Source: a virus (taxonomy: Duplodnaviria > Heunggongvirae > Uroviricota > Caudoviricetes). From it: 10,904 nt of DNA. The notes below the pieces were generated by a model. That model was not told where the DNA came from. It did not search any database and worked only from the letters and a program-made list of their open reading frames with translations. The translations under genes and the position numbers were made by a program. The stretch covers positions 1 to 10,904 of the IMG/VR virus record IMGVR_UViG_2660238215_000014; one strand, 5' to 3'. How positions within the stretch are numbered: the first letter of the stretch is position 1; each line of letters opens with the position of its first letter. Shown here piece by piece: positions 1 through 10,904 of the stretch.

Positions 1-78
1 CCACCAGTATAAGTTATTGATATATAGAAAAATAAAAATTTTTAGTGTCGAATCTGGTTGTTTTTTGTTCATCACTGG
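1..78. repeat. Copy A of a 78-bp imperfect direct repeat (copy B at 8446-8523; 72/78 identical), located 30-108 bp upstream of the terS start
   Basis: Base-by-base alignment of 1-78 with 8446-8523 gives 6 mismatches (positions 7, 14, 26, 29, 30, 55 of the repeat); longest exact blocks are 24 and 23 bp. Contains the 10-bp palindrome AAAAATTTTT (34-43) and TGTTCAtC (66-73), one mismatch from the origin octamer. The window starts inside or at the edge of this repeat, so its leftward extent is unknown. Confidence 0.85.
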
Positions 79-106
79 TGTGTGTTTACATAATTTTCAG
101 GGGGAG
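65..106 (+). promoter_or_regulatory. Putative sigma70-type promoter and ribosome binding site for terS
   Basis: -35-like TTGTTC (65-70), 18-bp spacer, -10-like CATAAT (89-94), Shine-Dalgarno GGGGGAG (100-106) just before ATG 109. Pattern match only; the -10 lies outside the repeated 78 bp and is not conserved in copy B. Confidence 0.3.
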
Positions 107-108
107 TT

Positions 109-585
109 ATGGATCGTGAATTAAAAAATCTGCATCTGAATATTTCCCAACTGGCCGCATTATCCGGTGCTCATCGACAGACTGTTGCGGCTCGGGTAAA
201 AAACATAAGCCCAGCCGGTGGTCATGAGAGCAATCTCAAACTGTACCGACTGACAGATATCCTTGCCGAGCTGATGAAAGCTCCTCTGCCTGTAGATAAC
301 GAGGAAATGGATCCTCATGCGCGTAAAGCATGGTACCAGTCAGAACGTGACCGACTGAAATTTGAGCAGGAAACTGGTCAGCTTGTGCCAGTCAGTGATG
401 TCAGGCGGTCCTTTTCTGTCGTGGTGAAAGCGATAGTTCAGGTACTGGAAACCTGGCCTGACCGGCTGGAGAGGGACAGGGGGTGGACCGCATCACAACT
501 GAATGAAGTACAGATTGTGGTTGATGAGATCCGCGACACACTGGAAAAGGCAGTCATTGACTGTTGTGATGAGGCCGATATGTGA
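109..585 (+). CDS. terS: Phage terminase small subunit (Nu1-like, N-terminal helix-turn-helix DNA-binding domain)
   Basis: 158-aa ORF with good RBS; N-terminal motif LNISQLAALSGAHRQTVAARV resembles the winged-HTH of small terminases; its stop overlaps the start of the gpA-type large terminase ORF (GTGA at 582-585), the classic terS-terL coupling. Confidence 0.65.
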   Translation: MDRELKNLHLNISQLAALSGAHRQTVAARVKNISPAGGHESNLKLYRLTDILAELMKAPLPVDNEEMDPHARKAWYQSERDRLKFEQETGQLVPVSDVRRSFSVVVKAIVQVLETWPDRLERDRGWTASQLNEVQIVVDEIRDTLEKAVIDCCDEADM

Positions 586-1589
586 ATCAGGTGAACGAGA
601 GCCATAGCCGCGCATCCGATATCTGGCGCGAAGTGGCCTCGCTGTTTCGCCCACCCAGCCGGTTACCAGTAGCGGAAGCCATCAGGCGTTATATGCGGGT
701 TCCACGGGGAGCCAATACTTCCGGTCCGTGGGAGTCATCGCTGACGCCCTATATGATTGACCCCATTAATACATTATCAGCCCGTGAATATGACGCGGTG
801 GTGTTTGTGGGACCTGCGCGAACCGGGAAAACCGAAGGGCTGATTGATGGCTGGATTGTGTACGGCATCATCTGTGATCCGGCGGATATGCTGGTGGTGC
901 AGATGACTGAGACGAAGGCGCGTGAGCATTCCAGAACGCGTCTTTCCAGGACGTTTCGCCACAGTCCGGAGGTCAGCAAGCGCCTCAGTCCTTCCCGTAA
1001 TGACAACAACGTCCACGATAAAATGTTTCTTGACGGCTCCTTCCTGAAGATTGGCTGGCCGTCGATCACCGTCTTTTCCTCTTCGGATTACCGTCGTGTG
1101 GCGCTGACGGATTATGACCGTTTCCCTGAAAACGTGGACGGGGAAGGGGATGCCTTCACGCTGGCCTCAAAGCGTACCACCACCTTTATGTCCTCGGGGA
1201 TGACCCTGGTCGAGAGTTCACCGGGGCGGGATATCACCGATACCAAATGGCGTTGTGGTGGCGCACATGAGGCACCGCCAACAACGGGGATCCTGTCACT
1301 GTATAACCGGGGAGACCGCCGCCGGTGGTACTGGCCGTGTCCGCACTGCGGGGAATATTTTCAGCCGGTGATGGATAACATGACCGGATACCGGAATAAC
1401 CCGGATTTTGTGGCTGCCGGTCAGGCTGCCCGTCTGATGTGTCCGCATTGTCGCGGGCTGATTGCCCCTGAGCAGAAACGCGAACTGAATAACCAGGGGA
1501 TCTGGCTTCGTGAAGGTGAACGGGCGGCGGCGGACGGCAGTATCACCGGAACGCCACGAAACTCCCGGATTGCGTCATTTTGGATGTAG
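582..1589 (+). pseudogene. terL: Large terminase, lambda gpA family, N-terminal fragment only (335 aa versus about 640 aa expected)
   Basis: Walker A GPARTGKT; paired CxxC motifs (CPHCGEYF ... CPHCRGL) as in lambda gpA from memory; gpA-like similarity continues to the last residues (GIWLREG ... ASFWM), then a TAG stop at 1587-1589 coincides with a sharp shift to AT-rich non-coding DNA. No continuation in any frame. Confidence 0.8.
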
Positions 1590-1750
1590 GGTACATTTCT
1601 TACCTGTTTGTATGTTCTGGTGTCGATTCATAGTCTTTTCAATGAGTTGTGATTTTATGAGTTTCCTCTCTTTGCTTGATAATGAGTTAGTTTATCGCTT
1701 GTTATTGGCTTGAATGGACTACATGACGGACTAAAAAATGAGGGCGATAG

Positions 1751-2989
1751 ATGTCGGTAAAGCCATTAACCGTGACTGAAGTTAAGGGGATGAAACCACG
1801 TGAAAAGGACTATGCCGTTTATGATGGGTTCGGTTTATTGCTGAATGTGAGTAAAGCCGGTGGGAAAGTGTGGCGTTTCCGTTATAGCCATCCGATAACG
1901 AAGAAACGGCAGACATACACGATAGGACGTTTTCCTGAATTCTCACTCGCGGAAGCACGGGAAGTACGTGATGAACTTCGGCGAATGATTGCACGTGGAG
2001 TTGATCCAGTGACGGAGAAGAAAAATCGTAAAATTGAGATGTCACTAAAAAATCTACAGACATTTGAAGCTGTTGCTAATGCATGGTTCGCTTTTAAAAA
2101 GGGATCTGAATTGCGGAAACCTACGCTGTATAATATCGAATATGAAGTATACAAATATCTTGTTCCTTTCTTTGGTAAGTACAGTATAGAAAAAATTACA
2201 GCACCAGTAGCTATTAATGCTCTGGATGCCGTATCCGATAAGAATGCGTTGCAAAAAAAATTAATATCAAGATTAAATGAAATTATGAATTATGCTGTAA
2301 ATTGTGGAGCATTGAAAGCAAATCCATTACTTAAGATAAAGACTGCATTCACAGGAAAGAAAAATAAATCATTAGCAGCACTACCTGTTGAAAGATTGCC
2401 TGAATTTCTGAGCTGGTGGGATAGTGTGCCTCATACCTATCAAATAGCTCATAATGCACTTTTATTCCAGATATTGACAATGGTTAGGCCAGGTGAGGCG
2501 ATTAAAGCAGAGTGGTCAGAGATTGATTTTGATTCTGGCTTGTGGATTATCCCCGCGCATAAAATGAAATGCCATCGTGAACATGTTGTTCCCTTGTCAT
2601 CACAGGCTATTAGTATCCTCAGAACAATGCAGGAAATAAAAAGAGGGCGTTATGTGTTTTTTTCCTCCAGAACAAAAGATGCGCCTATGGGGAGGAATAC
2701 TATCAAGACCCCAATTGCTGCCAGCAAGTTCAAAGGGATTGTAACGTTACATGGTTTTCGTTCAATGTGGAGTACGCTTTTAAATGAGGAGGGATTTAAC
2801 CCCGATGTAATCGAGGCTGCATTGGCGCATAAAAGTGGTGATAAAATAAGAGATATTTATAATAGAACTATTTATCTAGAACAGCGTAAGATCATGATGC
2901 AATGGGTCGGTGATTTTTTTGATGATGCGAGAAAAGGGGTAATTAATAGATCCGGTGGTATGAAAGGTTTAAGAGTAGTAAATGGTTGA
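1751..2989 (+). CDS. int: Tyrosine site-specific integrase, P4-like family (N-terminal arm-binding domain plus catalytic domain)
   Basis: 412 aa; N-terminus GLLLNVSKAGGKVWRFRYSHP...GRFPEFSLAEAREVRDEL matches the P4-type integrase arm-binding domain; C-terminal catalytic signature R (MVRPGEA), HGFRSMWST, LAHKSGDKIRDIYNRTIY with terminal Tyr. RBS GAGGG 6 nt upstream. Gene is markedly more AT-rich than its neighbours. Confidence 0.9.
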   Translation: MSVKPLTVTEVKGMKPREKDYAVYDGFGLLLNVSKAGGKVWRFRYSHPITKKRQTYTIGRFPEFSLAEAREVRDELRRMIARGVDPVTEKKNRKIEMSLKNLQTFEAVANAWFAFKKGSELRKPTLYNIEYEVYKYLVPFFGKYSIEKITAPVAINALDAVSDKNALQKKLISRLNEIMNYAVNCGALKANPLLKIKTAFTGKKNKSLAALPVERLPEFLSWWDSVPHTYQIAHNALLFQILTMVRPGEAIKAEWSEIDFDSGLWIIPAHKMKCHREHVVPLSSQAISILRTMQEIKRGRYVFFSSRTKDAPMGRNTIKTPIAASKFKGIVTLHGFRSMWSTLLNEEGFNPDVIEAALAHKSGDKIRDIYNRTIYLEQRKIMMQWVGDFFDDARKGVINRSGGMKGLRVVNG

Positions 2990-3002
2990 GGAGGTTCAGC
3001 AA

Positions 3003-3206
3003 ATGAATACCAATGAAGATATTTTATTTACTAAAGACGTAATGAAAATCTTGCGATATGGAGCAATGAGTGCATTCATCAATTTCTGGAAAGATGAGAA
3101 TAATGGTTTTCCTCAGCCGTTCAGAATTGGACGACGACATACCTGGCACCGTAGAGATGTAGAAGCATGGTTAGATAAACAACGAGAACAGGCCAATCCC
3201 CACTAA
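3003..3206 (+). CDS. alpA: AlpA/Vis-like small HTH transcriptional regulator or excisionase
   Basis: The track ORF starts at 2982, but a strong SD GAGGAGG (2988-2994) sits 8 nt before the in-frame ATG at 3003, giving 67 aa. Motif FPQPFRIGRRHTWHRRDVEAWL fits the AlpA family (FP-P-ilG-r---W---dV--Wl). Immediately downstream of int in the same orientation, as in P4 (vis) and Gram-negative PICIs. Confidence 0.75.
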   Translation: MNTNEDILFTKDVMKILRYGAMSAFINFWKDENNGFPQPFRIGRRHTWHRRDVEAWLDKQREQANPH

Positions 3207-3220
3207 TAATATCTTTCATA

Positions 3221-3245
3221 CCCCGCGTGCAATGCGGGGTTTTTT
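3221..3245 (+). terminator. Rho-independent terminator after int-alpA
   Basis: Stem CCCCGC (3221-3226), loop GTGCAAT, stem GCGGGG (3234-3239), followed by TTTTTT (3240-3245). Confidence 0.7.
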
Positions 3246-3265
3246 GTATGTGAGGTAAAAAAGAA

Positions 3266-3847
3266 ATGAATAAAAATATTGCCGTGACGGGCAAGGGTGA
3301 CGCACGTCATGTAAAAAAATTCTGTGATATTCGTGATCTGGTCGTTCTGCGCTTTGATAGTGTGAACGTTCGCGTGGTGTATCTGAACGGCGATCCGTGG
3401 TTTGTTGCAAAGGATGTTTGTGTTGCTCTGGAAATAAGTAACTCACGCGATGCTCTAAAAGCACTAGATGCGGATGAAAAGAAAACCGTCGCTTTAAGCT
3501 ACGGTATTCGAGGAAATCCAAATCATAGCCTCATTTCTGAATCCGGTTTTTACAAGCTGATCGCCAGAAGTCGGAAAGCTGTTACTCCTGGCACGTTCGC
3601 CCATCGTTTCAGTAACTGGGTATTCAGGAATGTGATACCGGGTATCAGAAAAACGGGGGCTTATGGTATCCCGTGGGGTGTAGTACAGGATTTTTCCCGC
3701 CGCAAAGAGCAATACCAGATAAGTGCCAGCGAGAAGGGGAGGGCGCTACAGGCATGTAAGCGCAAAAAACGTGAACTGGAGGAAGAAGAAAAAAGGCTGA
3801 TACGTGAATATCAGCCTGAGTTTTACTTTGGCAACCGCATTCAGTGA
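3266..3847 (+). CDS. Bro-N domain protein (antirepressor-like N-terminal domain, short coiled-coil-like C-terminus, no obvious KilA-C domain)
   Basis: 193 aa; hallmark Bro-N motifs VRVVYLNGDPWFVAKDVCVALEI ... SGFYKLIARSRKAVTPGTFAHRFSNWVFRNVIPGIRKTGAYG; SD GAGG 10 nt upstream of ATG 3266; C-terminal 50 aa rich in K/R/E. Confidence 0.8.
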   Translation: MNKNIAVTGKGDARHVKKFCDIRDLVVLRFDSVNVRVVYLNGDPWFVAKDVCVALEISNSRDALKALDADEKKTVALSYGIRGNPNHSLISESGFYKLIARSRKAVTPGTFAHRFSNWVFRNVIPGIRKTGAYGIPWGVVQDFSRRKEQYQISASEKGRALQACKRKKRELEEEEKRLIREYQPEFYFGNRIQ

Positions 3848-3879
3848 CAAAACAAAGGCGACCCGGATCAGAGGTCGCC
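3847..3879 (-). terminator. Putative rho-independent terminator for the minus-strand RHH gene
   Basis: Inverted repeat GGCGACC (3857-3863) / GGTCGCC (3873-3879) with 9-nt loop; on the minus strand the hairpin is followed by TTTGTTTTGT (complement of 3847-3856). Confidence 0.5.
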
Positions 3880-3970
3880 AATGGGAAAACACTAAACATA
3901 AGCCCAAACATCATAGCGATTTGTTGGCTGGTGGGCAATGTGATCAGTGTGCTGGCTTGCTGGTGGATTG

Positions 3971-4153
3971 TCAGCCTTTTGGTTCTATGCCTTCTTTGCG
4001 TAGCTTGTCACGACAGGCATTTTTAACCCATGAACTGAAATTACCAGGCCCAGCAACTTCGTTAATTTGTTGCAACAATGTGTCTTCGAAGCGGATGTTT
4101 TTCTTTGTGCTGCCGGAGCGATCAAATTTTGGTTTCTCATTTTTTTCTTGCAT
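3971..4153 (-). CDS. Small ribbon-helix-helix (Arc/CopG-like) DNA-binding protein; candidate repressor of the element
   Basis: 60 aa; segment KKNIRFEDTLLQQINEVAGPGNFSSWVKNACRDKL has the beta-strand / helix / G-x-S / helix pattern of RHH proteins. It is the only convincing minus-strand gene, divergent from the rightward operon, with palindromic operators at its 5' side and a hairpin terminator at its 3' side. Confidence 0.5.
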   Translation of the reverse strand: MQEKNEKPKFDRSGSTKKNIRFEDTLLQQINEVAGPGNFSSWVKNACRDKLRKEGIEPKG

Positions 4154-4198
4154 TGGTACGTACCACCATTATAAACTGAAACCCAATGGTACGTACCA
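4154..4198. promoter_or_regulatory. Two copies of the perfect 12-bp palindrome TGGTACGTACCA (4154-4165 and 4187-4198) bracketing a -10-like TATAAA; putative operator pair in the divergent promoter region
   Basis: Both copies read directly; 33 bp centre to centre (about 3 helical turns). Rightward -35-like TTGCAT (4148-4153) and -10-like TATAAA (4170-4175); on the minus strand a perfect TATAAT lies between the palindromes (complement of 4167-4172). Confidence 0.6.
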
Positions 4199-4298
4199 TG
4201 TTGAAGATACGCAACCATTAAATACAGCGAAGCCCCGCAGTGGTGGAACACTCGCAGGGCTTCTAACCACCAACGATAGCAAGATTATCGAGGTAGCT

Positions 4299-4490
4299 AT
4301 GTTAAATCATACCACACACCCGCAAGGGCGGGACTTGCACAACCTGAATAAATTCACCTGGCGTTTTATCGCCCTGAGCACGGCACAACCGCGCGTGATT
4401 ACCATTGAGGCCACCAGCGAACAGGAAGCACGCCAGCAATCTCCTGATGGCTGCGTGATGGTATTCGCTGCCCGTATTCGTCAGGGGTAA
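4299..4490 (+). CDS. Small hypothetical protein (63 aa), first gene of the rightward operon; function unknown
   Basis: ATG 4299 preceded by GAGG (4289-4292); corresponds to the C-terminal in-frame part of track ORF 3804-4490, whose upstream part looks non-coding. I have a vague, unverifiable recollection of Icd-like annotations on similar small proteins. Confidence 0.45.
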   Translation: MLNHTTHPQGRDLHNLNKFTWRFIALSTAQPRVITIEATSEQEARQQSPDGCVMVFAARIRQG

Positions 4491-4493
4491 GTC

Positions 4494-4859
4494 ATGCATA
4501 ACCTGTCAATTTCTGACCTTAACTGCATTCAGTTTGACGAGAAATTTACCGGGCAGCTACTGGTCCATGTGGAGAACGGGCGCATAGTGCGTAATTACCA
4601 CCTGCCGGATGGTGCAATTGCCGGAAGCGTTGAAGCATTGCTGGAACTGGCAGAACGTGCGCGACTGATTAAGCCGTTAACGAACCATCACGATGATGAT
4701 CTGCATTTTACCGGACGCATGGTGAGTCACTACGAAAACGGCGTCGAGGTATCCCGCGAACGGCTGCGTGATGATTGCTGTTTCGGCACACTGCCGGAAT
4801 TTATCGAGTTGCTGACCAGTTGCGGTTATCAGGTCATTCAGGGGGGTAAACATGCGTGA
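4494..4859 (+). CDS. Hypothetical protein (121 aa) made of two tandem copies of a roughly 50-aa domain (FTG-x-LV-x3-ENG ... L-x-ELL)
   Basis: SD AGGGG 7 nt upstream. Internal duplication visible in the translation: FTGQLLVHVENGRIVRNYHLPDGAIAGSVEALLELAERA versus FTGRMVSHYENGVEVSRERLRDDCCFGTLPEFIELLTSC. Confidence 0.6.
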   Translation: MHNLSISDLNCIQFDEKFTGQLLVHVENGRIVRNYHLPDGAIAGSVEALLELAERARLIKPLTNHHDDDLHFTGRMVSHYENGVEVSRERLRDDCCFGTLPEFIELLTSCGYQVIQGGKHA

Positions 4860-5085
4860 TGATCGTTTTAATTCCCTGAAACGGGAATTTGATGGCGCAC
4901 AGGAAGATGCAGCGGGCGCATTGTTGAGCGTTGCTGACATGATGAAAGCTGCATATTTTCTTATCAATACCAGTGGCTACAAGTCAGAGGGTGAAATGAT
5001 TCTTAGTATTGCGTCGGACTATGCGGAATATGTGGCAGAGACGCGTTACAGAAGAAAATTCACGGAGGATGTAAGCCATGCATAA
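4852..5085 (+). CDS. Hypothetical protein (77 aa)
   Basis: ATG overlaps the end of the previous gene by 8 nt; SD GGGGGG upstream; acidic, helical-looking sequence, no recognisable motif. Confidence 0.5.
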   Translation: MRDDRFNSLKREFDGAQEDAAGALLSVADMMKAAYFLINTSGYKSEGEMILSIASDYAEYVAETRYRRKFTEDVSHA

Positions 5086-5279
5086 TCATGAAGCGCATGT
5101 ACCCGTAGTGCTTAATGTGCCAGATGATTTCACCGGACGCGTACTGGTTTACCTGGATAAAGGGAAAGTGAAATCACAATGCCGACTGAAAAGTAATGAG
5201 ATTGTTGGTTCTCCTGAATTTTTTTTCTGAACTTTGTATTCGTGCGGAAATAAAACCGGAACTGCTGACAGGAAAATAA
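5078..5279 (+). pseudogene. Third copy of the FTG domain (paralog of 4494-4859), interrupted by a frameshift at a T8 homopolymer (5219-5226)
   Basis: ATG 5078 overlaps the previous stop (ATGCATAA). Frame 1 gives MHNHEAHVPVVLNVPDDFTGRVLVYLDKGKVKSQCRLKSNEIVGSPEFFF* (stop 5228-5230); the +1 frame continues SELCIRAEIKPELLTGK* (stop 5277-5279), which aligns with the ELAERARLIKPL part of the paralog. Not in the ORF track because each piece is under 60 aa. Confidence 0.5.
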
Positions 5280-5283
5280 AACC

Positions 5284-5574
5284 ATGAAAAAGAAAAATTC
5301 TGGCTTTACTGCCAGCGGCCTCTCTCGGCCTGAAATCCGCCCCGGTGATATTTTCCGGGACACCAGACGCGGTGGACGGGTGGTTATTCGTCACGTTACG
5401 CCAGGCAATATCACCTACCGCCGTGAGGCTTACGAATATGACTGCGTAATGCCGCGCCGTCAGTTTGATCGTGATTTTATTCTGGTGGAAAACAAACAAC
5501 AGGCAGTGGCGAGACGTGCAGCCACGAATATTAAAAAAATCCGGGCAATGTTGGTTGCGGGAGGTAAGAAGTGA
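5284..5574 (+). CDS. Hypothetical basic protein (96 aa), immediately upstream of and coupled to pri-rep
   Basis: ATG 5284 after AAAACC; stop overlaps the GTG start of the primase gene (GTGA 5571-5574); K/R-rich, no recognisable motif. Confidence 0.5.
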   Translation: MKKKNSGFTASGLSRPEIRPGDIFRDTRRGGRVVIRHVTPGNITYRREAYEYDCVMPRRQFDRDFILVENKQQAVARRAATNIKKIRAMLVAGGKK

Positions 5575-7370
5575 AAAACGCACCGAGTCTAAAATATCAG
5601 CTGAAGGATAAATTCACTGAGGTAATCATTTTTGCCGGGACGGATGCTTACGCCCATGCTCAACACTGGATTGAAAGTGAAGGACGAAAACACGGCGATA
5701 ACGTGCCTCCTGTTTACCTGGGGCCAAAGCAACTGGCAGACCTGGCGAATATCCGCATTATTGACGAGAAACGCCGTTTTGCGCGTGTCTATATCGCGGG
5801 GGAGATAGAGCCAATCCAGATCAATACTATCGCTGAAAAGCTGGCGCTGGCTGGCGTACAGGAGGCGAAATTATACAAAGGTATCACCGACCAGGAACCG
5901 GAGAACTGGCGCGACTACCTGCAACGGATCCGCGAACAGGCTGAGCACGGGGAAGTTTCAGTGATGAAATTAGCTACAAAAAATAGTGGTCTACCCAAGC
6001 CTGCATTAAATCAGATGGGAGCCAGCCAGAGAGGGGAAGTGTTACTTGAACATTATGGAGGAGCACTGGCGATTCATGCTGACTCTGACACTGTTCACCA
6101 TTACAACGGCGTTGTATGGGAGCCAGTACAGGATAAAGAATTACAGCGAGCTATGGCACAGATTTTCATTGATGCGGAGATCAGCTATTCGCAGAACGCC
6201 ATTAAATCGGCGGTAGATACCATGAAGTTAAGTTTGCCTGTAATGGGGAATACAGCCCGTAACCTGATTGGATTCAGTAACGGTGTTTTTGATACCCGGA
6301 CAGGCGATTTTCGGGAGCATAACAAAAACGACTGGTTGTTAATTGCCAGTGAATTACCTTTCAGCCCACCAGCAGAGGGGGAAACGCTGGCAACACATGC
6401 GCCGAATTTCTGGAAGTGGTTACGCCGTTCGGTGGCTGAGAATGACCGCAAGGCGGATCGCGTACTGGCTGCATTATTCATGGTGCTGGCGAACCGGTAC
6501 GACTGGCAGTTATTCATTGAGGTAACAGGTCCAGGGGGAAGTGGTAAAAGCGTGATGGCGGAGATTTGCACCATGCTGGCGGGTAAGGCCAACACGGTAT
6601 CGGCAAGCATGAAGGCGCTGGAAGATGCCAGGGAACGCGCGTTAGTGGTTGGCTTTTCGCTGATTATCATGCCGGATATGACCCGCTACGCTGGTGATGG
6701 GGCAGGGATTAAGGCTATTACAGGCGGTGACAAGGTGGCAATTGACCCGAAACACAAAGCCCCCTACTCAACGCGTATTCCGGCAGTAGTGCTGGCGGTT
6801 AACAATAACGCCATGTCATTCAGTGACCGCAGCGGGGGGATCTCACGTCGTCGGGTGATATTCAATTTTTCGGAAGTTGTACAGGAGAACGAACGCGATC
6901 CAATGCTGGCGGAAAAAATAGAAGGTGAGCTGGCGGTAGTGATTCGCCATCTGCTTACACGGTTTGCTGACCAGGACGAAGCCAGACGCCTGTTATATGA
7001 GCAGCAGAAATCTGAAGAAGCACTGGCGATAAAGCGAGAGGGGGATTCGCTGGTGGACTTCTGCGGCTATCTCATGGCGTCGGTAATGTGTGATGGCCTG
7101 TTAGTGGGTAATGCTGAAATTGTACCATTCAGCCCACGCAGGTATCTCTATCATGCCTATCTGGCTTATATGCGGGCACATGGGTTTGGTAAACCTGTAA
7201 CACTGACTCGCTTCGGTAAAGATATGCCGGGGGCAATGGCGGAATATGGCAGGGAGTATATGAAACGGAAAACGAAGCACGGTTTGCGTTCAAACGTGAC
7301 ACTGATGGAGGAATCAGAAGACTGGATGCCATCATGTGTATCGGTCACTAATGACGATAGCAAAAATTAA
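5571..7370 (+). CDS. Replication initiator primase/helicase (pri-rep; P4 alpha-like / D5-type SF3 helicase with P-loop)
   Basis: 599 aa, GTG start with SD GGAGGT (5560-5565); Walker A GPGGSGKS near residue 310 with downstream hydrophobic strand and acidic motif (LIIMPDMT); N-terminal region resembles a primase/Toprim-like domain; cognate iteron origin lies immediately 3' of the gene. Confidence 0.8.
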   Translation: MKNAPSLKYQLKDKFTEVIIFAGTDAYAHAQHWIESEGRKHGDNVPPVYLGPKQLADLANIRIIDEKRRFARVYIAGEIEPIQINTIAEKLALAGVQEAKLYKGITDQEPENWRDYLQRIREQAEHGEVSVMKLATKNSGLPKPALNQMGASQRGEVLLEHYGGALAIHADSDTVHHYNGVVWEPVQDKELQRAMAQIFIDAEISYSQNAIKSAVDTMKLSLPVMGNTARNLIGFSNGVFDTRTGDFREHNKNDWLLIASELPFSPPAEGETLATHAPNFWKWLRRSVAENDRKADRVLAALFMVLANRYDWQLFIEVTGPGGSGKSVMAEICTMLAGKANTVSASMKALEDARERALVVGFSLIIMPDMTRYAGDGAGIKAITGGDKVAIDPKHKAPYSTRIPAVVLAVNNNAMSFSDRSGGISRRRVIFNFSEVVQENERDPMLAEKIEGELAVVIRHLLTRFADQDEARRLLYEQQKSEEALAIKREGDSLVDFCGYLMASVMCDGLLVGNAEIVPFSPRRYLYHAYLAYMRAHGFGKPVTLTRFGKDMPGAMAEYGREYMKRKTKHGLRSNVTLMEESEDWMPSCVSVTNDDSKN

Positions 7371-7382
7371 ACTTATGGAATA

Positions 7383-7613
7383 ACTGTTCACCACTGTTCA
7401 CCCTGTCATAAATATCTTTTATATCAGTATATTATAGGGTGAACAGTTATTTATTAACTGTTCACCAAACTATTCACTGTTCACCTTTTTGATTGTTTAT
7501 TGAGCTTCAAGGGTGAACAGTGGTGAACAGTTGGTGAATAGTTTTTGTGAAACTGTTCACCAATTAACATTATGAATTAAAAGATAAAATATCAAAAGGT
7601 GAACAGGTGAAGG
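7383..7613. repeat. Replication origin: array of TGTTCACC iterons in both orientations with AT-rich spacers
   Basis: Perfect forward copies at 7385-7392, 7395-7402, 7459-7466, 7478-7485, 7554-7561; perfect inverted copies (GGTGAACA) at 7438-7445, 7512-7519, 7522-7529, 7598-7605; degenerate copies at 7471-7478, 7533-7540, 7606-7613; AT-rich stretches 7403-7437 and 7562-7597. Confidence 0.85.
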
Positions 7614-7657
7614 GTTAAAACGCAAAAATTTTAATTTACTGCTGTGAGATAAAGCCT

Positions 7658-7903
7658 ATGACAGCGAAGCACACAAAAAAATCACAATCGCACGCCCTTG
7701 ATTTGACGGAACACTGGTTAAGGGTGTCGATAAAAATCATCGACCGCAACGCCGGGGAAGGATATGCGAAAGCACATCCCGAACTAATAATCGCATTCAT
7801 GACCACGGCGGCGGCAAACTTTGCCACGCTGACGGAACGGGAGATTGCCGAAGCGGAACAGGTAACAACCATCAACGTTAAAACCGGAGAGGTGGAATCA
7901 TGA
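7658..7903 (+). CDS. Hypothetical protein (81 aa)
   Basis: ORF downstream of the origin; its stop overlaps the SSB-like start (ATGA 7900-7903), suggesting an operon; no recognisable motif. Confidence 0.4.
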   Translation: MTAKHTKKSQSHALDLTEHWLRVSIKIIDRNAGEGYAKAHPELIIAFMTTAAANFATLTEREIAEAEQVTTINVKTGEVES

Positions 7904-8323
7904 CAGCACAGATAGCCGCTTACGGGCGGCTGGTGGACGACCCGCAGGTAAAACAGACCAGCAAGGGCACACCGATGACGCTGGCGCGTATGGCGGTCCC
8001 CCCTTCCGTGCAGCCAGGCAGATGACGGAACGGCGACGATGTGGTTATCCGTCCTGGCATTTGGCAGACAGGCCGAAGCACTGGAAAGGCACCGCAAGGG
8101 TGAACTCCTGAGCGTGGCGGGTAACATGCAGATCAGCCAGTGGACTGGGCAGAACGGAGAAACGCGGCAGGGCTGGCAGGTTATCGCAGACAGTGTAATC
8201 AGTGCGCGAACGGCGCGACTGGGCGGCAAAAAAGGTCAACAAGGCCAGGCTACTGACGCGCTGAACAGGGCAAAACAACAGGCGGGGAATGATGATCCGT
8301 ACGGGGATAACATACCGTTTTAA
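7900..8323 (+). pseudogene. ssb: Single-stranded DNA-binding (SSB)-like gene split by a frameshift at a C6 run (7998-8003)
   Basis: Frame 1 from ATG 7900: MTAQIAAYGRLVDDPQVKQTSKGTPMTLARMAV..., resembling the SSB N-terminus ([27 protein letters not shown]), stop at 8023-8025. Frame 2 open from 7979 through track ORF 8039-8323: ...WLSVLAFGRQAEALERHRKGELLSVAGNMQISQWTGQNGETRQGWQVIADSV ... DNIPF, resembling the SSB OB-fold core and IPF tail. Confidence 0.6.
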
Positions 8324-8339
8324 GCGACGAGTGACAGAA

Positions 8340-8361
8340 GCCGGAGCAATCCGGCTTTTTT
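8340..8361 (+). terminator. Rho-independent terminator after the SSB-like gene
   Basis: Stem GCCGGA (8340-8345), loop GCAA, stem TCCGGC (8350-8355), then TTTTTT (8356-8361). Confidence 0.75.
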
Positions 8362-8445
8362 ACGGGTCCTCCTGGCGGGGTGGGCCTGAACACGGGGCGA
8401 CGGGCGCGGAAAAAGGCGCATTTTTTGATTTTTATGGCACCATCA

Positions 8446-8523
8446 CCACCACTATAAGCTATTGATATATTGAGGAATAAAAATTTTTAGTGTCGAATCA
8501 GGTTGTTTTTTGTTCATCACTGG
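8446..8523. repeat. Copy B of the 78-bp imperfect direct repeat (copy A at 1-78)
   Basis: See copy A. Weaker homology continues about 25 bp further (TTTACA ... CAGG) with an indel. In copy B the -10-like element of copy A is replaced (CAAAAA in place of CATAAT). Confidence 0.85.
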
Positions 8524-8790
8524 AACGTTCCCGAAAACATTTACAAAAAAACAGGCGCAAAAAAAAGCGCCCCCGATTGCTGTTACCGGAGGCGCTTTTA
8601 CACGACAAAGGAGTTTTTATCGCCAGGATGACGAGTCTTAATATTGCTTCAATGGCAAAAATGCGTCAATGGCTTTGCCTCTCTGAGAATAATCAGAAAA
8701 AACATAATCTGATTTTCAGGTAGAAAATGATTTATCTATTGCTTTTATCGATCAATAATGATGCCCGTTAATCAAAACGGAGGCGGATTT

Positions 8791-8985
8791 ATGCCAGAGA
8801 ACAACACCAGAAAGCCGGATAAAAGTGCCACGGTACACATAGACGCCGGAACTATGGAGAAGATCGAACGCTATCAGCAGTTCATCAAAGATAATCACCC
8901 GGGTATGCCGGTACCCACGAAAGGACAAATCACACGCAGCGCGGTTGAATACTGGTACCAGGCAACGTTAGGAGCCTGGCTATGA
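8791..8985 (+). CDS. Small hypothetical protein (65 aa from ATG 8791; track start 8758), possibly RHH-like, translationally coupled to the protease-capsid gene
   Basis: Strong SD GGAGG (8779-8783) 7 nt before ATG 8791; stop overlaps the capsid ORF start (ATGA 8982-8985); pattern ATVHIDAGTMEKIERYQQFIK ... TKGQITRSAVEYWYQA is compatible with a beta-strand / helix / helix fold. Confidence 0.45.
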   Translation: MPENNTRKPDKSATVHIDAGTMEKIERYQQFIKDNHPGMPVPTKGQITRSAVEYWYQATLGAWL

Positions 8986-10871
8986 AAACATGGTTTTCCA
9001 TTAAGGCTATGGCAGATGTTGTCTATGTGCGTATTTATGACGAGATCGGCGGGTACGGTGTAAAAGCATCGACACTTACTGACGAGATCAACGCGTGCGG
9101 TAATGCGTCTGAAATCCATCTTCGCATCCATTCACCTGGTGGCGACATCTTTGAAGGGCTGGCTATCTATAACGCCCTGAAAAATCATCCGGCAAAGAAA
9201 ATTGTACACATTGAAGGCATGGCGGCTTCTATGGCCTCGTTTATTGCCATGTGTGGCGATCACATCGTTATGCCTGAAAACGCGATGATGATGATACATG
9301 CCCCCCGTGGTGTTACTGCCGGAGTGTCGGGCGACGTTCGCCGCTTTGCTGACCTGATGGACAAGCTGGGCGACACGATGGCGGAAACCTACGCCGGAAG
9401 AACGGGCAGGAGCAAACAGGAGATCACCTCAATGATGGAGGCGGAAACCTGGATGGATGGCAATGAGTGTAAGGCTAACGGCTTCGCAGATGAGGTTATA
9501 CCCGCGATTACAGCAATGGCCCGAATTGAATCAAAACGAATCGGAGATTTTTCAAATATGCCGGAAAAAATTAAAAGCATGATCAGCCAGAAAACTGGCA
9601 GTGGCGAACAGGAACGACTTAACGGAATCCGTGAATTGTTTGGCACCTTCAACGGAAGATATAACGACCTGGCTATAAGTTGTCTTGCGGATTCAGAATG
9701 TAGCGTTGAGAATGCACGCGAACGCCTTTTACTCGCTATGGGTAAAGAATCAACGCCAACAAACAAAACCACCCCCGCAAATCTTTACTACGCGTACACG
9801 GATAACGGCAATATAACCGGCGATGCCATGCGTCAGGGGCTTAATGCGCGTCTTGGTCACGAACGGGCCGAACGCGGTAATCCTTACGCCATGATGAGCC
9901 TTTTCGATATGGCACAGGCATCATTAACCCATCGTGGTATAAGCACGGGCAGCTACAGCACACGCTCGCAGATAGTAAACGCGGCATTCACCCACAGCAG
10001 CAGCGATTTTACCGATATCCTTGCTGGTGGCGCTGAAAAATCAGTGCTTGCAGGCTGGGAGCACAGCGGCGAAACATTCCGCCAGTGGACGAAAAAAGGT
10101 TCCCTTTCAAACTTCCGGGAAGCCCGCCGCGTTGGTATGAATGGCTTCTCAACGTTAAACAAAGTGCCGGAAGGGGCAGAATATAAATACATCACCACCA
10201 GCGATCGCGGTGAACCCATCGCGCTGGCTACTTACGGGAATATTTTCAGTATTACCCGCCAGGCGATAATCAATGATGACCTTGATCAGTTATCAACGGT
10301 GCCAATGGCTATGGGCCGTGCAGCATCAAGAACGGTGGGAAATCTGGTTAATCTGGTGCTTACAGGCAACGTAAAACTTTCTGACGGAATAACGCTGTTT
10401 GACAAAAAACACAGCAACCTGATTGAAACAGGACTGACAACACCGGGACTTAGTGCAGCACGTCACCTGATGCGCACACAGAAGGACAAAAATGGCGAAG
10501 TGCTGAATATTGCGCCTAAATTCCTTTTAGTTCCGGCAGCACTGGAAGATCGCGCGTTGCAGATGATTAACTCAACCGCACCTTTCGGGGCTGATAAAAA
10601 CAGCGGGATCTTTAACCCGTATCACAAGCTACTTGATATCATCGTCGATCCCCGCCTTGATGATATCAGCGAAAAACAATGGTACATGCTTTCCGCACAG
10701 GGAACGGACACAATCGAGGTGGCTTATCTTGATGGCAATGACGAGCCTTACCTTGAACAGCAGGAAGGTTTTATCGTTGACGGCGTGGCCTGGAAAGTCC
10801 GTATTGATGCAGGTGTGGCAGCTCTGGATTATCGCGGTATGGTCAAATCAGGCGGGACAGATTCACTATGA
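8982..10871 (+). CDS. Prohead serine protease (ClpP/S14-like) fused to an HK97-fold major capsid protein
   Basis: 629 aa; N-terminal region has ClpP-like signatures (HSPGGDIFEGLAIYNAL, catalytic Ser context GMAASMASF, His context MMMIHAP); the C-terminal 350 aa or so resemble phage major capsid proteins; followed directly by a strong terminator, typical of a highly expressed capsid gene. Confidence 0.8.
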   Translation: MKTWFSIKAMADVVYVRIYDEIGGYGVKASTLTDEINACGNASEIHLRIHSPGGDIFEGLAIYNALKNHPAKKIVHIEGMAASMASFIAMCGDHIVMPENAMMMIHAPRGVTAGVSGDVRRFADLMDKLGDTMAETYAGRTGRSKQEITSMMEAETWMDGNECKANGFADEVIPAITAMARIESKRIGDFSNMPEKIKSMISQKTGSGEQERLNGIRELFGTFNGRYNDLAISCLADSECSVENARERLLLAMGKESTPTNKTTPANLYYAYTDNGNITGDAMRQGLNARLGHERAERGNPYAMMSLFDMAQASLTHRGISTGSYSTRSQIVNAAFTHSSSDFTDILAGGAEKSVLAGWEHSGETFRQWTKKGSLSNFREARRVGMNGFSTLNKVPEGAEYKYITTSDRGEPIALATYGNIFSITRQAIINDDLDQLSTVPMAMGRAASRTVGNLVNLVLTGNVKLSDGITLFDKKHSNLIETGLTTPGLSAARHLMRTQKDKNGEVLNIAPKFLLVPAALEDRALQMINSTAPFGADKNSGIFNPYHKLLDIIVDPRLDDISEKQWYMLSAQGTDTIEVAYLDGNDEPYLEQQEGFIVDGVAWKVRIDAGVAALDYRGMVKSGGTDSL

Positions 10872-10877
10872 CAACAA

Positions 10878-10899
10878 GGCGGCACCAGCCGCCTTTTTT
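10878..10899 (+). terminator. Rho-independent terminator after the capsid gene
   Basis: Stem GGCGGC (10878-10883), loop ACCA, stem GCCGCC (10888-10893), then TTTTTT (10894-10899). Confidence 0.75.
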
Positions 10900-10904
10900 G
10901 CGGG

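Follow-up and report, generated by a model that had tools for sequence, protein, structure and literature searches.

A capsid gene cassette in a putative helper-embedded satellite within the terL gene of a lambdoid prophage

How does a gene for a fused head protease and major capsid protein come to lie in a phage-like locus with neither a portal nor a terminase gene adjoining it? This question is raised by a stretch of 10,904 nucleotides from a tailed-phage record (IMG/VR record IMGVR_UViG_2660238215_000014, positions 1 to 10,904; hereafter the window), in which the capsid gene and a short open reading frame (ORF) in front of it follow directly on genes of a satellite. A preliminary description of the sequence had left two answers: either the element carries a capsid gene of its own, as reported for capsid-forming phage-inducible chromosomal islands (cf-PICIs), or it was inserted into a prophage in a way that deleted the portal region. 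According to the analysis presented here the element is a PICI of the Gram-negative type and of the helper-embedded kind (HE-PICI), which sits in the large terminase gene terL of a lambdoid prophage and brings along its own capsid cassette; we put the probability of this reading at about 0.8. Of the satellite, the left three quarters fall within the window, and portal and terminase genes are not found beside the capsid gene because the window ends before the prophage genes resume downstream.

Insertion of the satellite in terL

An identical layout was found in four complete Escherichia coli genomes, namely L001 (O111:H8 strain 8E), L002 (O111:H21), L003 (O121:H19) and L092 (strain 155). In L001 the prophage lysis genes, the small terminase gene terS and a terL annotated as 'missing C-terminus' lie to the left. 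They are followed by the satellite genes for an integrase (int), a helix-turn-helix (HTH) protein, a Bro-N protein, YlcI/YnfO, an Icd-like protein, a DUF4222 protein, a primase and ssb, by a 195-nt ORF and the ClpP/capsid fusion, and by ORFs of 67 and 93 amino acids (aa). To the right come a terL annotated as 'missing N-terminus', a gpW-like gene, the portal gene, a second ClpP/capsid fusion and tail genes. In all four genomes the remainder of terL, the gpW-like gene, the portal gene and the capsid fusion of the prophage resume about 0.95 kb beyond the window end. The half of terL and the portal gene that had been described as replaced by the satellite are thus both intact downstream, and terL is merely split. 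The downstream context, proposed earlier as the place to look for a standard head-tail module or an attachment (att) site, contains the rest of terL, portal, capsid and tail genes as well as attR.

The satellite is oriented like the late operon of the prophage, and about 10.25 kb separate its att cores. It is inserted at the boundary between the ATPase and nuclease parts of terL, at a core of about 12 bp (T/CTGGATGGAGGG). The attL core TTGGATGTAGGG is shared by the window, L002 and L092. Its T comes from the attP side and creates an in-frame TAG, so that the truncated TerL ends at the junction (…SFWM-stop); L001 has a G at the position that makes this TAG. The attR core reads TTGGATGGAGGG in L001 (29829-29840), and attB reads CTGGATGGAGGG, encoding FWMEG, in the intact terL genes of mEp460, L016 and L019. 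With the junction variants included, attL is T(T/C)TGGATG(G/T)AGGG and attR is (T/C)TGGATGGA(G/A)GG. In uninterrupted terL genes the N- and C-terminal parts overlap by exactly 12 nt. This overlap and the shared att core show a clean site-specific insertion, in which nothing was deleted.

A rearranged prophage, whose own capsid gene came to adjoin a foreign island when the terL 3′ half and the portal gene were lost, would fit the window taken by itself, which shows neither of the two. This explanation can practically be dismissed, since the terL 3′ half, the gpW-like gene, the portal gene and a second fusion with only 50-55% identity follow downstream in the four genomes, the att core is duplicated with an intact attB elsewhere, and the cassette also occurs in PICIs at other sites. 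For the same reasons, and in view of the 12-nt overlap and the intact head-tail module, the portal region of the prophage was not deleted by the insertion, as the second of the two earlier answers had it.

Matches that cover at least 80% of the window were found in 46 complete E. coli genomes, and those listed are mostly serotypes of Shiga-toxin-producing E. coli (STEC; O111, O157:H7, O103). The junction between terL and int was found in 74 genomes. Most of the remaining matches to the terL allele of the window, e.g. Sakai Sp15, end exactly at the core and therefore represent empty insertion sites. The host prophages are diverse (Rac-like in L001, Qin-like in L003), and identities to the window fall to only 71-73% for terL and only 34% for terS. 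Despite this divergence of the host terL the satellite integrase is 99-100% identical in L001 to L003. SpLE2 of O157 Sakai was considered as a candidate for the same element and rejected, as it sits between cobU and yeeB and not in a prophage terminase gene.

The small ORF and the protease-capsid fusion

The cassette comprises the small ORF and the gene for a fusion of ClpP-type protease, scaffold and HK97-type major capsid protein, and is flanked on both sides by terminators (Table 1). The fusion matches CLP_protease over residues 41-173 (E 4e-33) and Phage_capsid_4 over residues 330-623 (E 1e-54). Its top PHROG is phrog_133 (head maturation protease, E 7e-280), and phrog_4523 ('major head and protease protein') matches as well. 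Both genes are preceded at a distance of seven bases by purine-rich motifs (GGAGG at 8779-8783 and AGGAG at 8970-8974, respectively), and the TGA of the small ORF (8983-8985) overlaps the ATG of the capsid gene (8982-8984) within an ATGA. An alternative ATG at 8758 would extend the small ORF to 75 aa; its homologues, however, have 64 aa, and an identical 195-nt ORF is annotated in RefSeq relatives. The ORF of 65 aa first described with a stop overlapping the capsid start is accordingly real, with a length of 64 aa plus the stop codon.

Over its full length the satellite fusion is 50-55% identical to the fusion of the resident prophage, and none among 50,697 phage records exceeds 52% identity to it. 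The element thus carries a capsid gene of its own, which is not that of the prophage it resides in. A phylogeny of the capsid domain had been suggested as a check; in a neighbour-joining tree the satellite-type fusions form a single clade. A clean division appeared when gene neighbourhoods were compared, at 80 loci from IMG/VR and 77 from genomes. Fusions that share 57% identity or more with that of the window have the small ORF upstream and a PICI backbone (79 of the 80 IMG/VR loci), and fusions at most 52% identical nearly always have a portal gene upstream, usually with terS and terL further up. At the examined genome loci each satellite-type fusion follows the small ORF, never a portal gene.

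The cassette was found in Escherichia, Klebsiella, Kluyvera, Yersinia, Buttiauxella, Moellerella and Rahnella, and in combination with at least four classes of integrase, whose identities to the window integrase are 94-100% (terL site), 39%, 21-24% and 27-29% (C:CLP_protease:110). Purifying selection on both genes is indicated by ratios of nonsynonymous to synonymous substitution rates, which lie at 0.04-0.23 in the fusion and at 0.03-0.25 in the small ORF. The Ser (AASMAS) and His (MIHxP) motifs of ClpP are retained in the satellite fusions. In architecture they depart from the phage type chiefly by lacking a Pro/Ala-rich linker of about 30-60 aa between protease and scaffold, and clade-specific substitutions are present in the capsid domain. 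As judged from the sequences, these comparisons show that the cassette belongs to the satellite and not to the prophage, and that it is a conserved, selected and satellite-specific lineage common to PICIs with different integrases.

Two copies of the cassette each were observed at three IMG/VR loci: in L159 one PICI is nested in the ClpP/capsid gene of another, and in L153 and L147 the copies appear to lie in series. Nested PICIs have been reported for the tRNA-Ile2 PICIs (PMC10111431). Five further IMG/VR loci (L125, L127, L137, L141, L149) represent a sister lineage at the same terL site, with an integrase 94-97%, a capsid fusion 62% and a small ORF 36-38% identical to those of the window.

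The small ORF matches PHROG 4934, which is listed there with unknown function. Pfam gave no match and nothing relevant even at E values up to 10, and tblastn against the 50,697 phage genomes gave no match. Among 5.8 billion proteins the family amounts to 12 clusters, and a profile search of 1.84 billion representatives returned 13 hits; apart from one distant 64-aa protein, these are either close relatives or spurious matches to repeat proteins. Invariant residues fall into two motifs (VHIDA-TM--IE-YQ and P-MPVPTKGQI-R--V-YW----LGAW). In a low-confidence AlphaFold2 (AF2) model (pLDDT 66) the N-terminus is disordered, residues 19-35 form one helix and residues 44-63 further helices, possibly with a strand ahead of two or three helices. 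Neither Foldseek against the PDB nor a profile search of PDB sequences returned a hit. A ribbon-helix-helix fold was considered and is unsupported (hhalign probability 0.1 against a hand-typed mini-alignment of Arc, Mnt and CopG), and a C-terminal remnant of the portal gene or a helper gene was rejected, as tblastn found no match in the prophage or in any phage genome. Searches of Pfam, AF2 modelling, Foldseek, the PDB profile and hhalign support neither the capsid-size or assembly factor nor the DNA-binding regulator that had been suggested for this ORF. On the comparisons given above it is a real conserved protein, functionally tied to the capsid gene of the satellite.

cos sites and the possible role of the cassette

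Copy B of a 78-bp repeat had been noted in front of the capsid gene. The repeat is real, with 92% identity between 1-78 and 8446-8523, but to regard it as a mere shared upstream element was wrong, because it is part of a cos site: compared with the full prophage sequence, copy B forms a 166-bp block of about 92% identity (E 6e-67, far beyond chance), which begins right after the ssb terminator. The start of the window truncates the prophage site (copy A), whose shared block runs 88 bp further upstream in L001. The putative cosN of copy B is a GC-rich core, GGGCGACGGGCG between ACG and CGG (about 8395-8406), and the prophage core is GGGCGGGCGGCG. This GC-rich core resembles the cosN of lambda (GGGCGGCGACCT). 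The record of phage cdtI, which has the same type of head genes, begins with GGGCGGGAGCGTCGCGGAAAAAGG and ends with GGTGGCCTGCCACG, both within the homologous block.

The small ORF and the capsid gene are bracketed by copy B and a further cos copy, C, which combines a prophage-type cosN core with a divergent cosB side. In L001 the annotated 67-aa ORF (28855-29058) overlaps the 3′ end of the capsid gene and copy C. In distant PICIs with the cassette the only cos lies 3′ of the capsid gene, with a 54-60-aa N-terminal fragment of terS behind it. The sister E. coli lineage at the terL site has both cos copies and, after the second one, a near-full terS homologue of about 140 aa (55-57% identical). 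According to this distribution copy C is the older PICI cos and copy B an addition in the lineages from E. coli. EcCICFT073 is an earlier case of a PICI shown to have two cos sites (PMC6092414, PMC6739421). The ORFs of 54-60 aa after the post-capsid cos (L005 12321-12485, L010 11064-11246, and in L012, L013, L015 and L160) contain only the N-terminal HTH part of a DUF1441 TerS. They may encode an Rpp-like factor that redirects packaging and that is gone from the lineage of the window. A domain search of the 64-, 67- and 93-aa ORFs of the late zone revealed no TerS-like or HTH domain and no Rpp-like protein, and no similarity was found that would make the 93-aa ORF past the capsid gene a TerS- or Rpp-like protein.

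A possible life cycle can be drawn up from the literature on HE-PICIs and other PICIs. Upon induction of the prophage, late transcription antiterminated by Q would pass through terS and what is left of terL and so enter the satellite. Int and AlpA would excise the satellite, by which terL would be restored, and the satellite would replicate from its own iteron origin. The helper terminase would then cut and package the satellite, starting at cos copy B, which on its cosB side matches the resident prophage. The fusion, helped or regulated by the small protein, might build a satellite-made or mixed procapsid shell on the helper portal, with processing by its own ClpP part, and so provide heads for satellite DNA. 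This role of the cassette is tentative, and we rate it somewhat short of an even chance. It is suggested because the whole polypeptide is conserved, the capsid type matches that of the helper, and the cassette travels as a unit. Indeed, the capsid type follows the helper type: the HE-PICI 11capE has a lambda-E-type capsid gene in an E-type helper, and here a ClpP fusion is found in a ClpP-fusion helper.

Several points weigh against these proposals. A scan for sigma-70 promoters 5′ of the cassette gave none that was convincing; together with the flanking terminators, this is consistent with Q-dependent read-through. The exact attP junction (…cttcTTGGATGTAGGGtacattt…) was absent from IMG/VR and JGI metagenome contigs, and there was no terminally redundant or circular contig among the 80 IMG/VR loci. 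Excision, replication, packaging and particle composition of the satellite are all predictions; for excision, replication and transfer the occurrence of both empty and occupied sites among related prophages is indirect evidence. Furthermore, the cosN of copy B differs from that of the prophage at 3 of 12 positions, and in L002 and L003 the host terS is different and the match is limited to the cosN part, so that the resident prophage is not always the obvious helper. Some hosts are defective, since the prophage ClpP/capsid gene is frameshifted in L001 (32655-34633) and has an internal stop in L003 (18229-20256); it is intact in L002 and L092. [quoted passage not shown]

The dispensable capsid gene of EcCICFT073 would also suit a fusion that serves interference or insurance and is not needed for transfer, either by poisoning helper procapsids or by replacing a defective or interrupted helper capsid gene. 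Relatives with the cassette in Klebsiella, Kluyvera and Rahnella interrupt the ClpP/capsid gene of the helper, and where the prophage capsid gene is broken, as in L001 and L003, the locus may have no intact capsid gene besides that of the satellite. Nevertheless this explanation is rather improbable, given the strong purifying selection, which in different genera and with different integrase classes acts over the full length of protease, scaffold and capsid as well as on the small ORF; at the terL site, in addition, the capsid gene of the helper is uninterrupted, and in L002 and L092 it is intact.

Alternatively, the fusion could act like Ccm of SaPIbov5, as a capsid homologue which co-assembles with the helper capsid protein and steers assembly to small heads that exclude the helper genome of about 46 kb. 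SaPIbov5 is likewise a cos-type satellite that encodes a homologue of the HK97-fold capsid protein of its helper and no portal (PMC8569155), and PmCI172 makes small capsids and has a capsid homologue (PMC6092414). In line with such a role the fusion is a full-length homologue of the helper fusion, the satellite clade has lost the linker and acquired substitutions in the capsid domain, and satellites with the cassette measure about 9.7-10.4 kb; by arithmetic, a T=4-sized head would hold two copies and a T=3-sized head one. However, four copies (about 41 kb) suit a normal head equally: T=3-, T=4- and T=7-sized heads are by arithmetic about equally suited to one, two and four copies of about 10 kb, respectively, which makes head size undecidable from genome size, and the T numbers given here are arithmetic. 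EcCICFT073 likewise possesses a capsid gene, and its packaged DNA has phage size (PMC6092414). SaPIbov5 differs in being a Gram-positive element of unrelated sequence with a capsid protein only, and size redirection, shown for Ccm, would here be a prediction. Taken together, a Ccm-like function is conceivable, though not very likely.

Relation to known satellites and further features of the window

HE-PICIs were described by Tommasini, Mageeney and Williams in 2023, with 491 further elements and 14 sites in cognates of lambda late genes (PMC10111431). They are oriented like the late operon and consist of four ordered zones (PMC10111431). The element of the window has the same configuration, i.e. 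a split late gene, co-orientation, an att identity block and four zones in order: int and alpA; the Bro zone; replication with primase, iteron origin and ssb; and a late zone composed of cos copy B, the 64-aa ORF, the protease-scaffold-capsid fusion, cos copy C and the 93-aa ORF, after which attR follows. It resembles the prototype 11capE (Eco567.11capE, L004, in prophage 50icd of E. coli NRG857c), with which it shares the gene order, YlcI/YnfO, Icd-like, DUF4222 and ssb genes, a primase 85% identical and a capsid gene of the type of the helper. 11capE and its helper also share a cos at the equivalent position between ssb and the capsid gene, where other PICIs have theirs too (PMC10111431). 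In contrast, the integrase of the window is only 25% identical to that of 11capE (86 bits in BLASTP, against a survey cutoff of 400 bits in tblastn), and the capsid genes of 11capE are homologues of lambda E and D instead of a ClpP fusion with a small ORF. In the published HE-PICI integrase clade a doubled TGTATTGC flanks the attP centre, at about 81 bp on the upstream side and about 132 bp on the downstream side (PMC10111431). This doubled motif is absent here, with no match at up to one mismatch near 19580-19760 or 29700-29840 of L001. The 'A' sites of HE-PICIs lie in Terminase_1-type genes, whereas the terL used here is of the gpA type. In the complete attL and attR files of the survey supplements and in part of the genomic island (GI) spreadsheet, neither a site name 'GpA' nor any of eight k-mers from the att core and its flanks was present. 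The survey was limited to relatives of one integrase, and its authors expected more such elements (PMC10111431).

The C:CLP_protease:110 HE-PICIs (e.g. Kpn4002.11; L005-L009, L013, L080, L150, L169) carry the same cassette after the replication zone, with identities to the window of 66% for the small ORF, 58-61% for the fusion and about 80% for the primase. They differ in sitting in the ClpP/capsid gene of the helper, in their integrase (27-29% identical), and in having a cos only after the capsid gene, which is followed by the 54-60-aa fragment of terS.

Features of Gram-negative cos-type PICIs, for which a size of 10-20 kb is given (PMC6092414), were found throughout: int, alpA, pri-rep, an iteron origin, a helper-like cos and a length of about 10.25 kb, with neither lysis nor tail genes. 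EcCICFT073 is alike in its int-alpA-pri-ori order, the absence of terS, packaging by a helper cos terminase, two cos sites and a capsid homologue without portal (PMC6092414, PMC6739421). It differs by chromosomal integration and by a lambda-E-like capsid gene with a decoration gene. Its cosB is unlike that of the helper and is read via Rpp-TerS, whereas here the cosB of copy B is helper-like and no Rpp-like protein is seen.

A cf-PICI that makes complete heads and takes only tails from the helper is a very improbable alternative. Int, alpA, primase, capsid and protease are present, as in the PICI backbone of EcCIEDL933 with its own capsid and protease genes, here fused in one ORF. However, cf-PICIs also encode portal, head-tail connectors, HNH, terS and terL (bioRxiv 10.1101/2022.09.08.507074); none of these lies between the att sites, and those nearby belong to the prophage. 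In addition, the satellite has about 10.25 kb compared to 15.4 kb in EcCIEDL933 (bioRxiv 10.1101/2022.09.08.507074), and the 64- and 93-aa ORFs are implausibly small for a novel portal or terminase. The analogy to cf-PICIs that had been drawn at first therefore fails on gene content.

The kind of element is already known, and the variant described here lies outside the published survey. No description of the small ORF or of a satellite-specific capsid clade was found in published accounts. New in detail are the integrase and the terL site, both outside that survey, the satellite capsid clade, and a small ORF as near-constant partner across integrase classes and genera. Embedding in late genes of a helper thus extends beyond the one integrase clade of the 2023 description. 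Among the late genes of Gram-negative PICIs, those for capsid proteins are the most common (21 of 29 reference elements; PMC10111431). The sole knockouts of such lone capsid genes in E. coli, those of EcCICFT073, had no phenotype. A monophyletic and strongly selected fusion, almost always accompanied by one orphan small protein, provides a sharper test case, and the main value of the present cassette is that it gives a tractable handle on PICI capsid genes. It is present in sequenced STEC isolates (e.g. strain 155, NZ_CP018237, and O111:H8 strain 8E, NZ_CP077465) beside helpers of the same capsid architecture. Annotators of prophages are likely to misread such loci as degraded prophages with a 'partial terminase' and duplicated capsid genes.

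A wider interpretation is speculative and, taken as a whole, unlikely: the cassette would be a self-contained, satellite-specific shell kit with which PICIs that are otherwise classical and of the cos type build heads of their own, perhaps smaller ones, on a portal stolen from the helper, the insertion in terL would act as a checkpoint, and the helper-embedded lifestyle would have arisen twice, with an unrelated integrase. If true, the shell kit would be an intermediate between PICIs that remodel helper capsids and cf-PICIs that make all but the tails. Targeting of terL would tie packaging of the helper to excision of the satellite, as no helper terminase could be made before excision.

Table 1. 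Features of the window and their coordinates
Feature	Position	Strand	Remarks
cos copy A, cosB-side part of the host prophage cos	1-78	+	31 bp 5′ of terS; cosN before window start
Prophage small terminase, DUF1441 family	109-585	+	E 2e-49
Prophage terL (gpA family), N-terminal ATPase fragment, cut by satellite	582-1589	+	GpA_ATPase E 6e-82; RefSeq 'missing C-terminus'
attL core TTGGATGTAGGG	1580-1591	+	compared with attR and attB
Satellite tyrosine integrase	1751-2989	+	Arm-DNA-bind_3 and Phage_integrase domains
AlpA-like HTH protein (excisionase/activator)	3003-3206	+	weak HTH_17 match; RefSeq annotation
Bro-N domain protein ('Bro zone')	3266-3847	+	E 9e-19
D5_N/DUF5906/Pox_D5 primase-helicase, replication zone	5571-7370	+	85% identical to 11capE primase
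Putative replication origin	7378-7612		AT-rich, immediately 3′ of primase; iterons (CTGTTCACC/GGTGAACAG, at least 10) occur in both orientations
ssb gene	7900-8323	+	frameshift relative to L092, caused by an additional C in a C-run (about 7993-7999)
Intrinsic terminator hairpin 3′ of ssb	8338-8361	+	-18.3 kcal/mol, z -5.1
Satellite cos copy B	8358-8523	+	cosQ/cosN-like part, then helper-like cosB part (78-bp repeat, 8446-8523)
Small orphan ORF	8791-8985	+	64 codons and stop; translationally coupled to capsid gene
ClpP-protease/scaffold/HK97-type major capsid fusion	8982-10871	+	629 aa, satellite-encoded
Intrinsic terminator 3′ of capsid gene	10878-10899	+	z -3.2
cos copy C, first bases	10900-10904	+	continues outside window (L001 28945-29030)

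The iteron array is presumably the replication origin of the satellite, and the origin of a PICI has been located 3′ of the primase gene before (PMC6092414). The frameshift in ssb reflects either a pseudogene or a sequencing error in the homopolymer. No Rfam family, including C4 and isrK, reached the gathering threshold over the window, and no P4-type immunity RNA was seen. Pfam and PHROG scans of part of the window ORFs gave no P4-like sid, psu or delta. A 228-aa ORF with a GTG start (3804-4490, plus strand) is probably spurious; over this region RefSeq relatives have YlcI/YnfO at about 3971-4153 on the minus strand and, at about 4300-4490 on the plus strand, an Icd-like inhibitor of cell division. 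The window is a mosaic, with 99.4% identity to L001 over 1-3967 and 99% identity to L002 over 7718-10904. The Bro and replication zones differ, and L002 has a RepA-type helicase in place of the primase. The mosaicism of the window points to modular recombination among satellites of the terL site.

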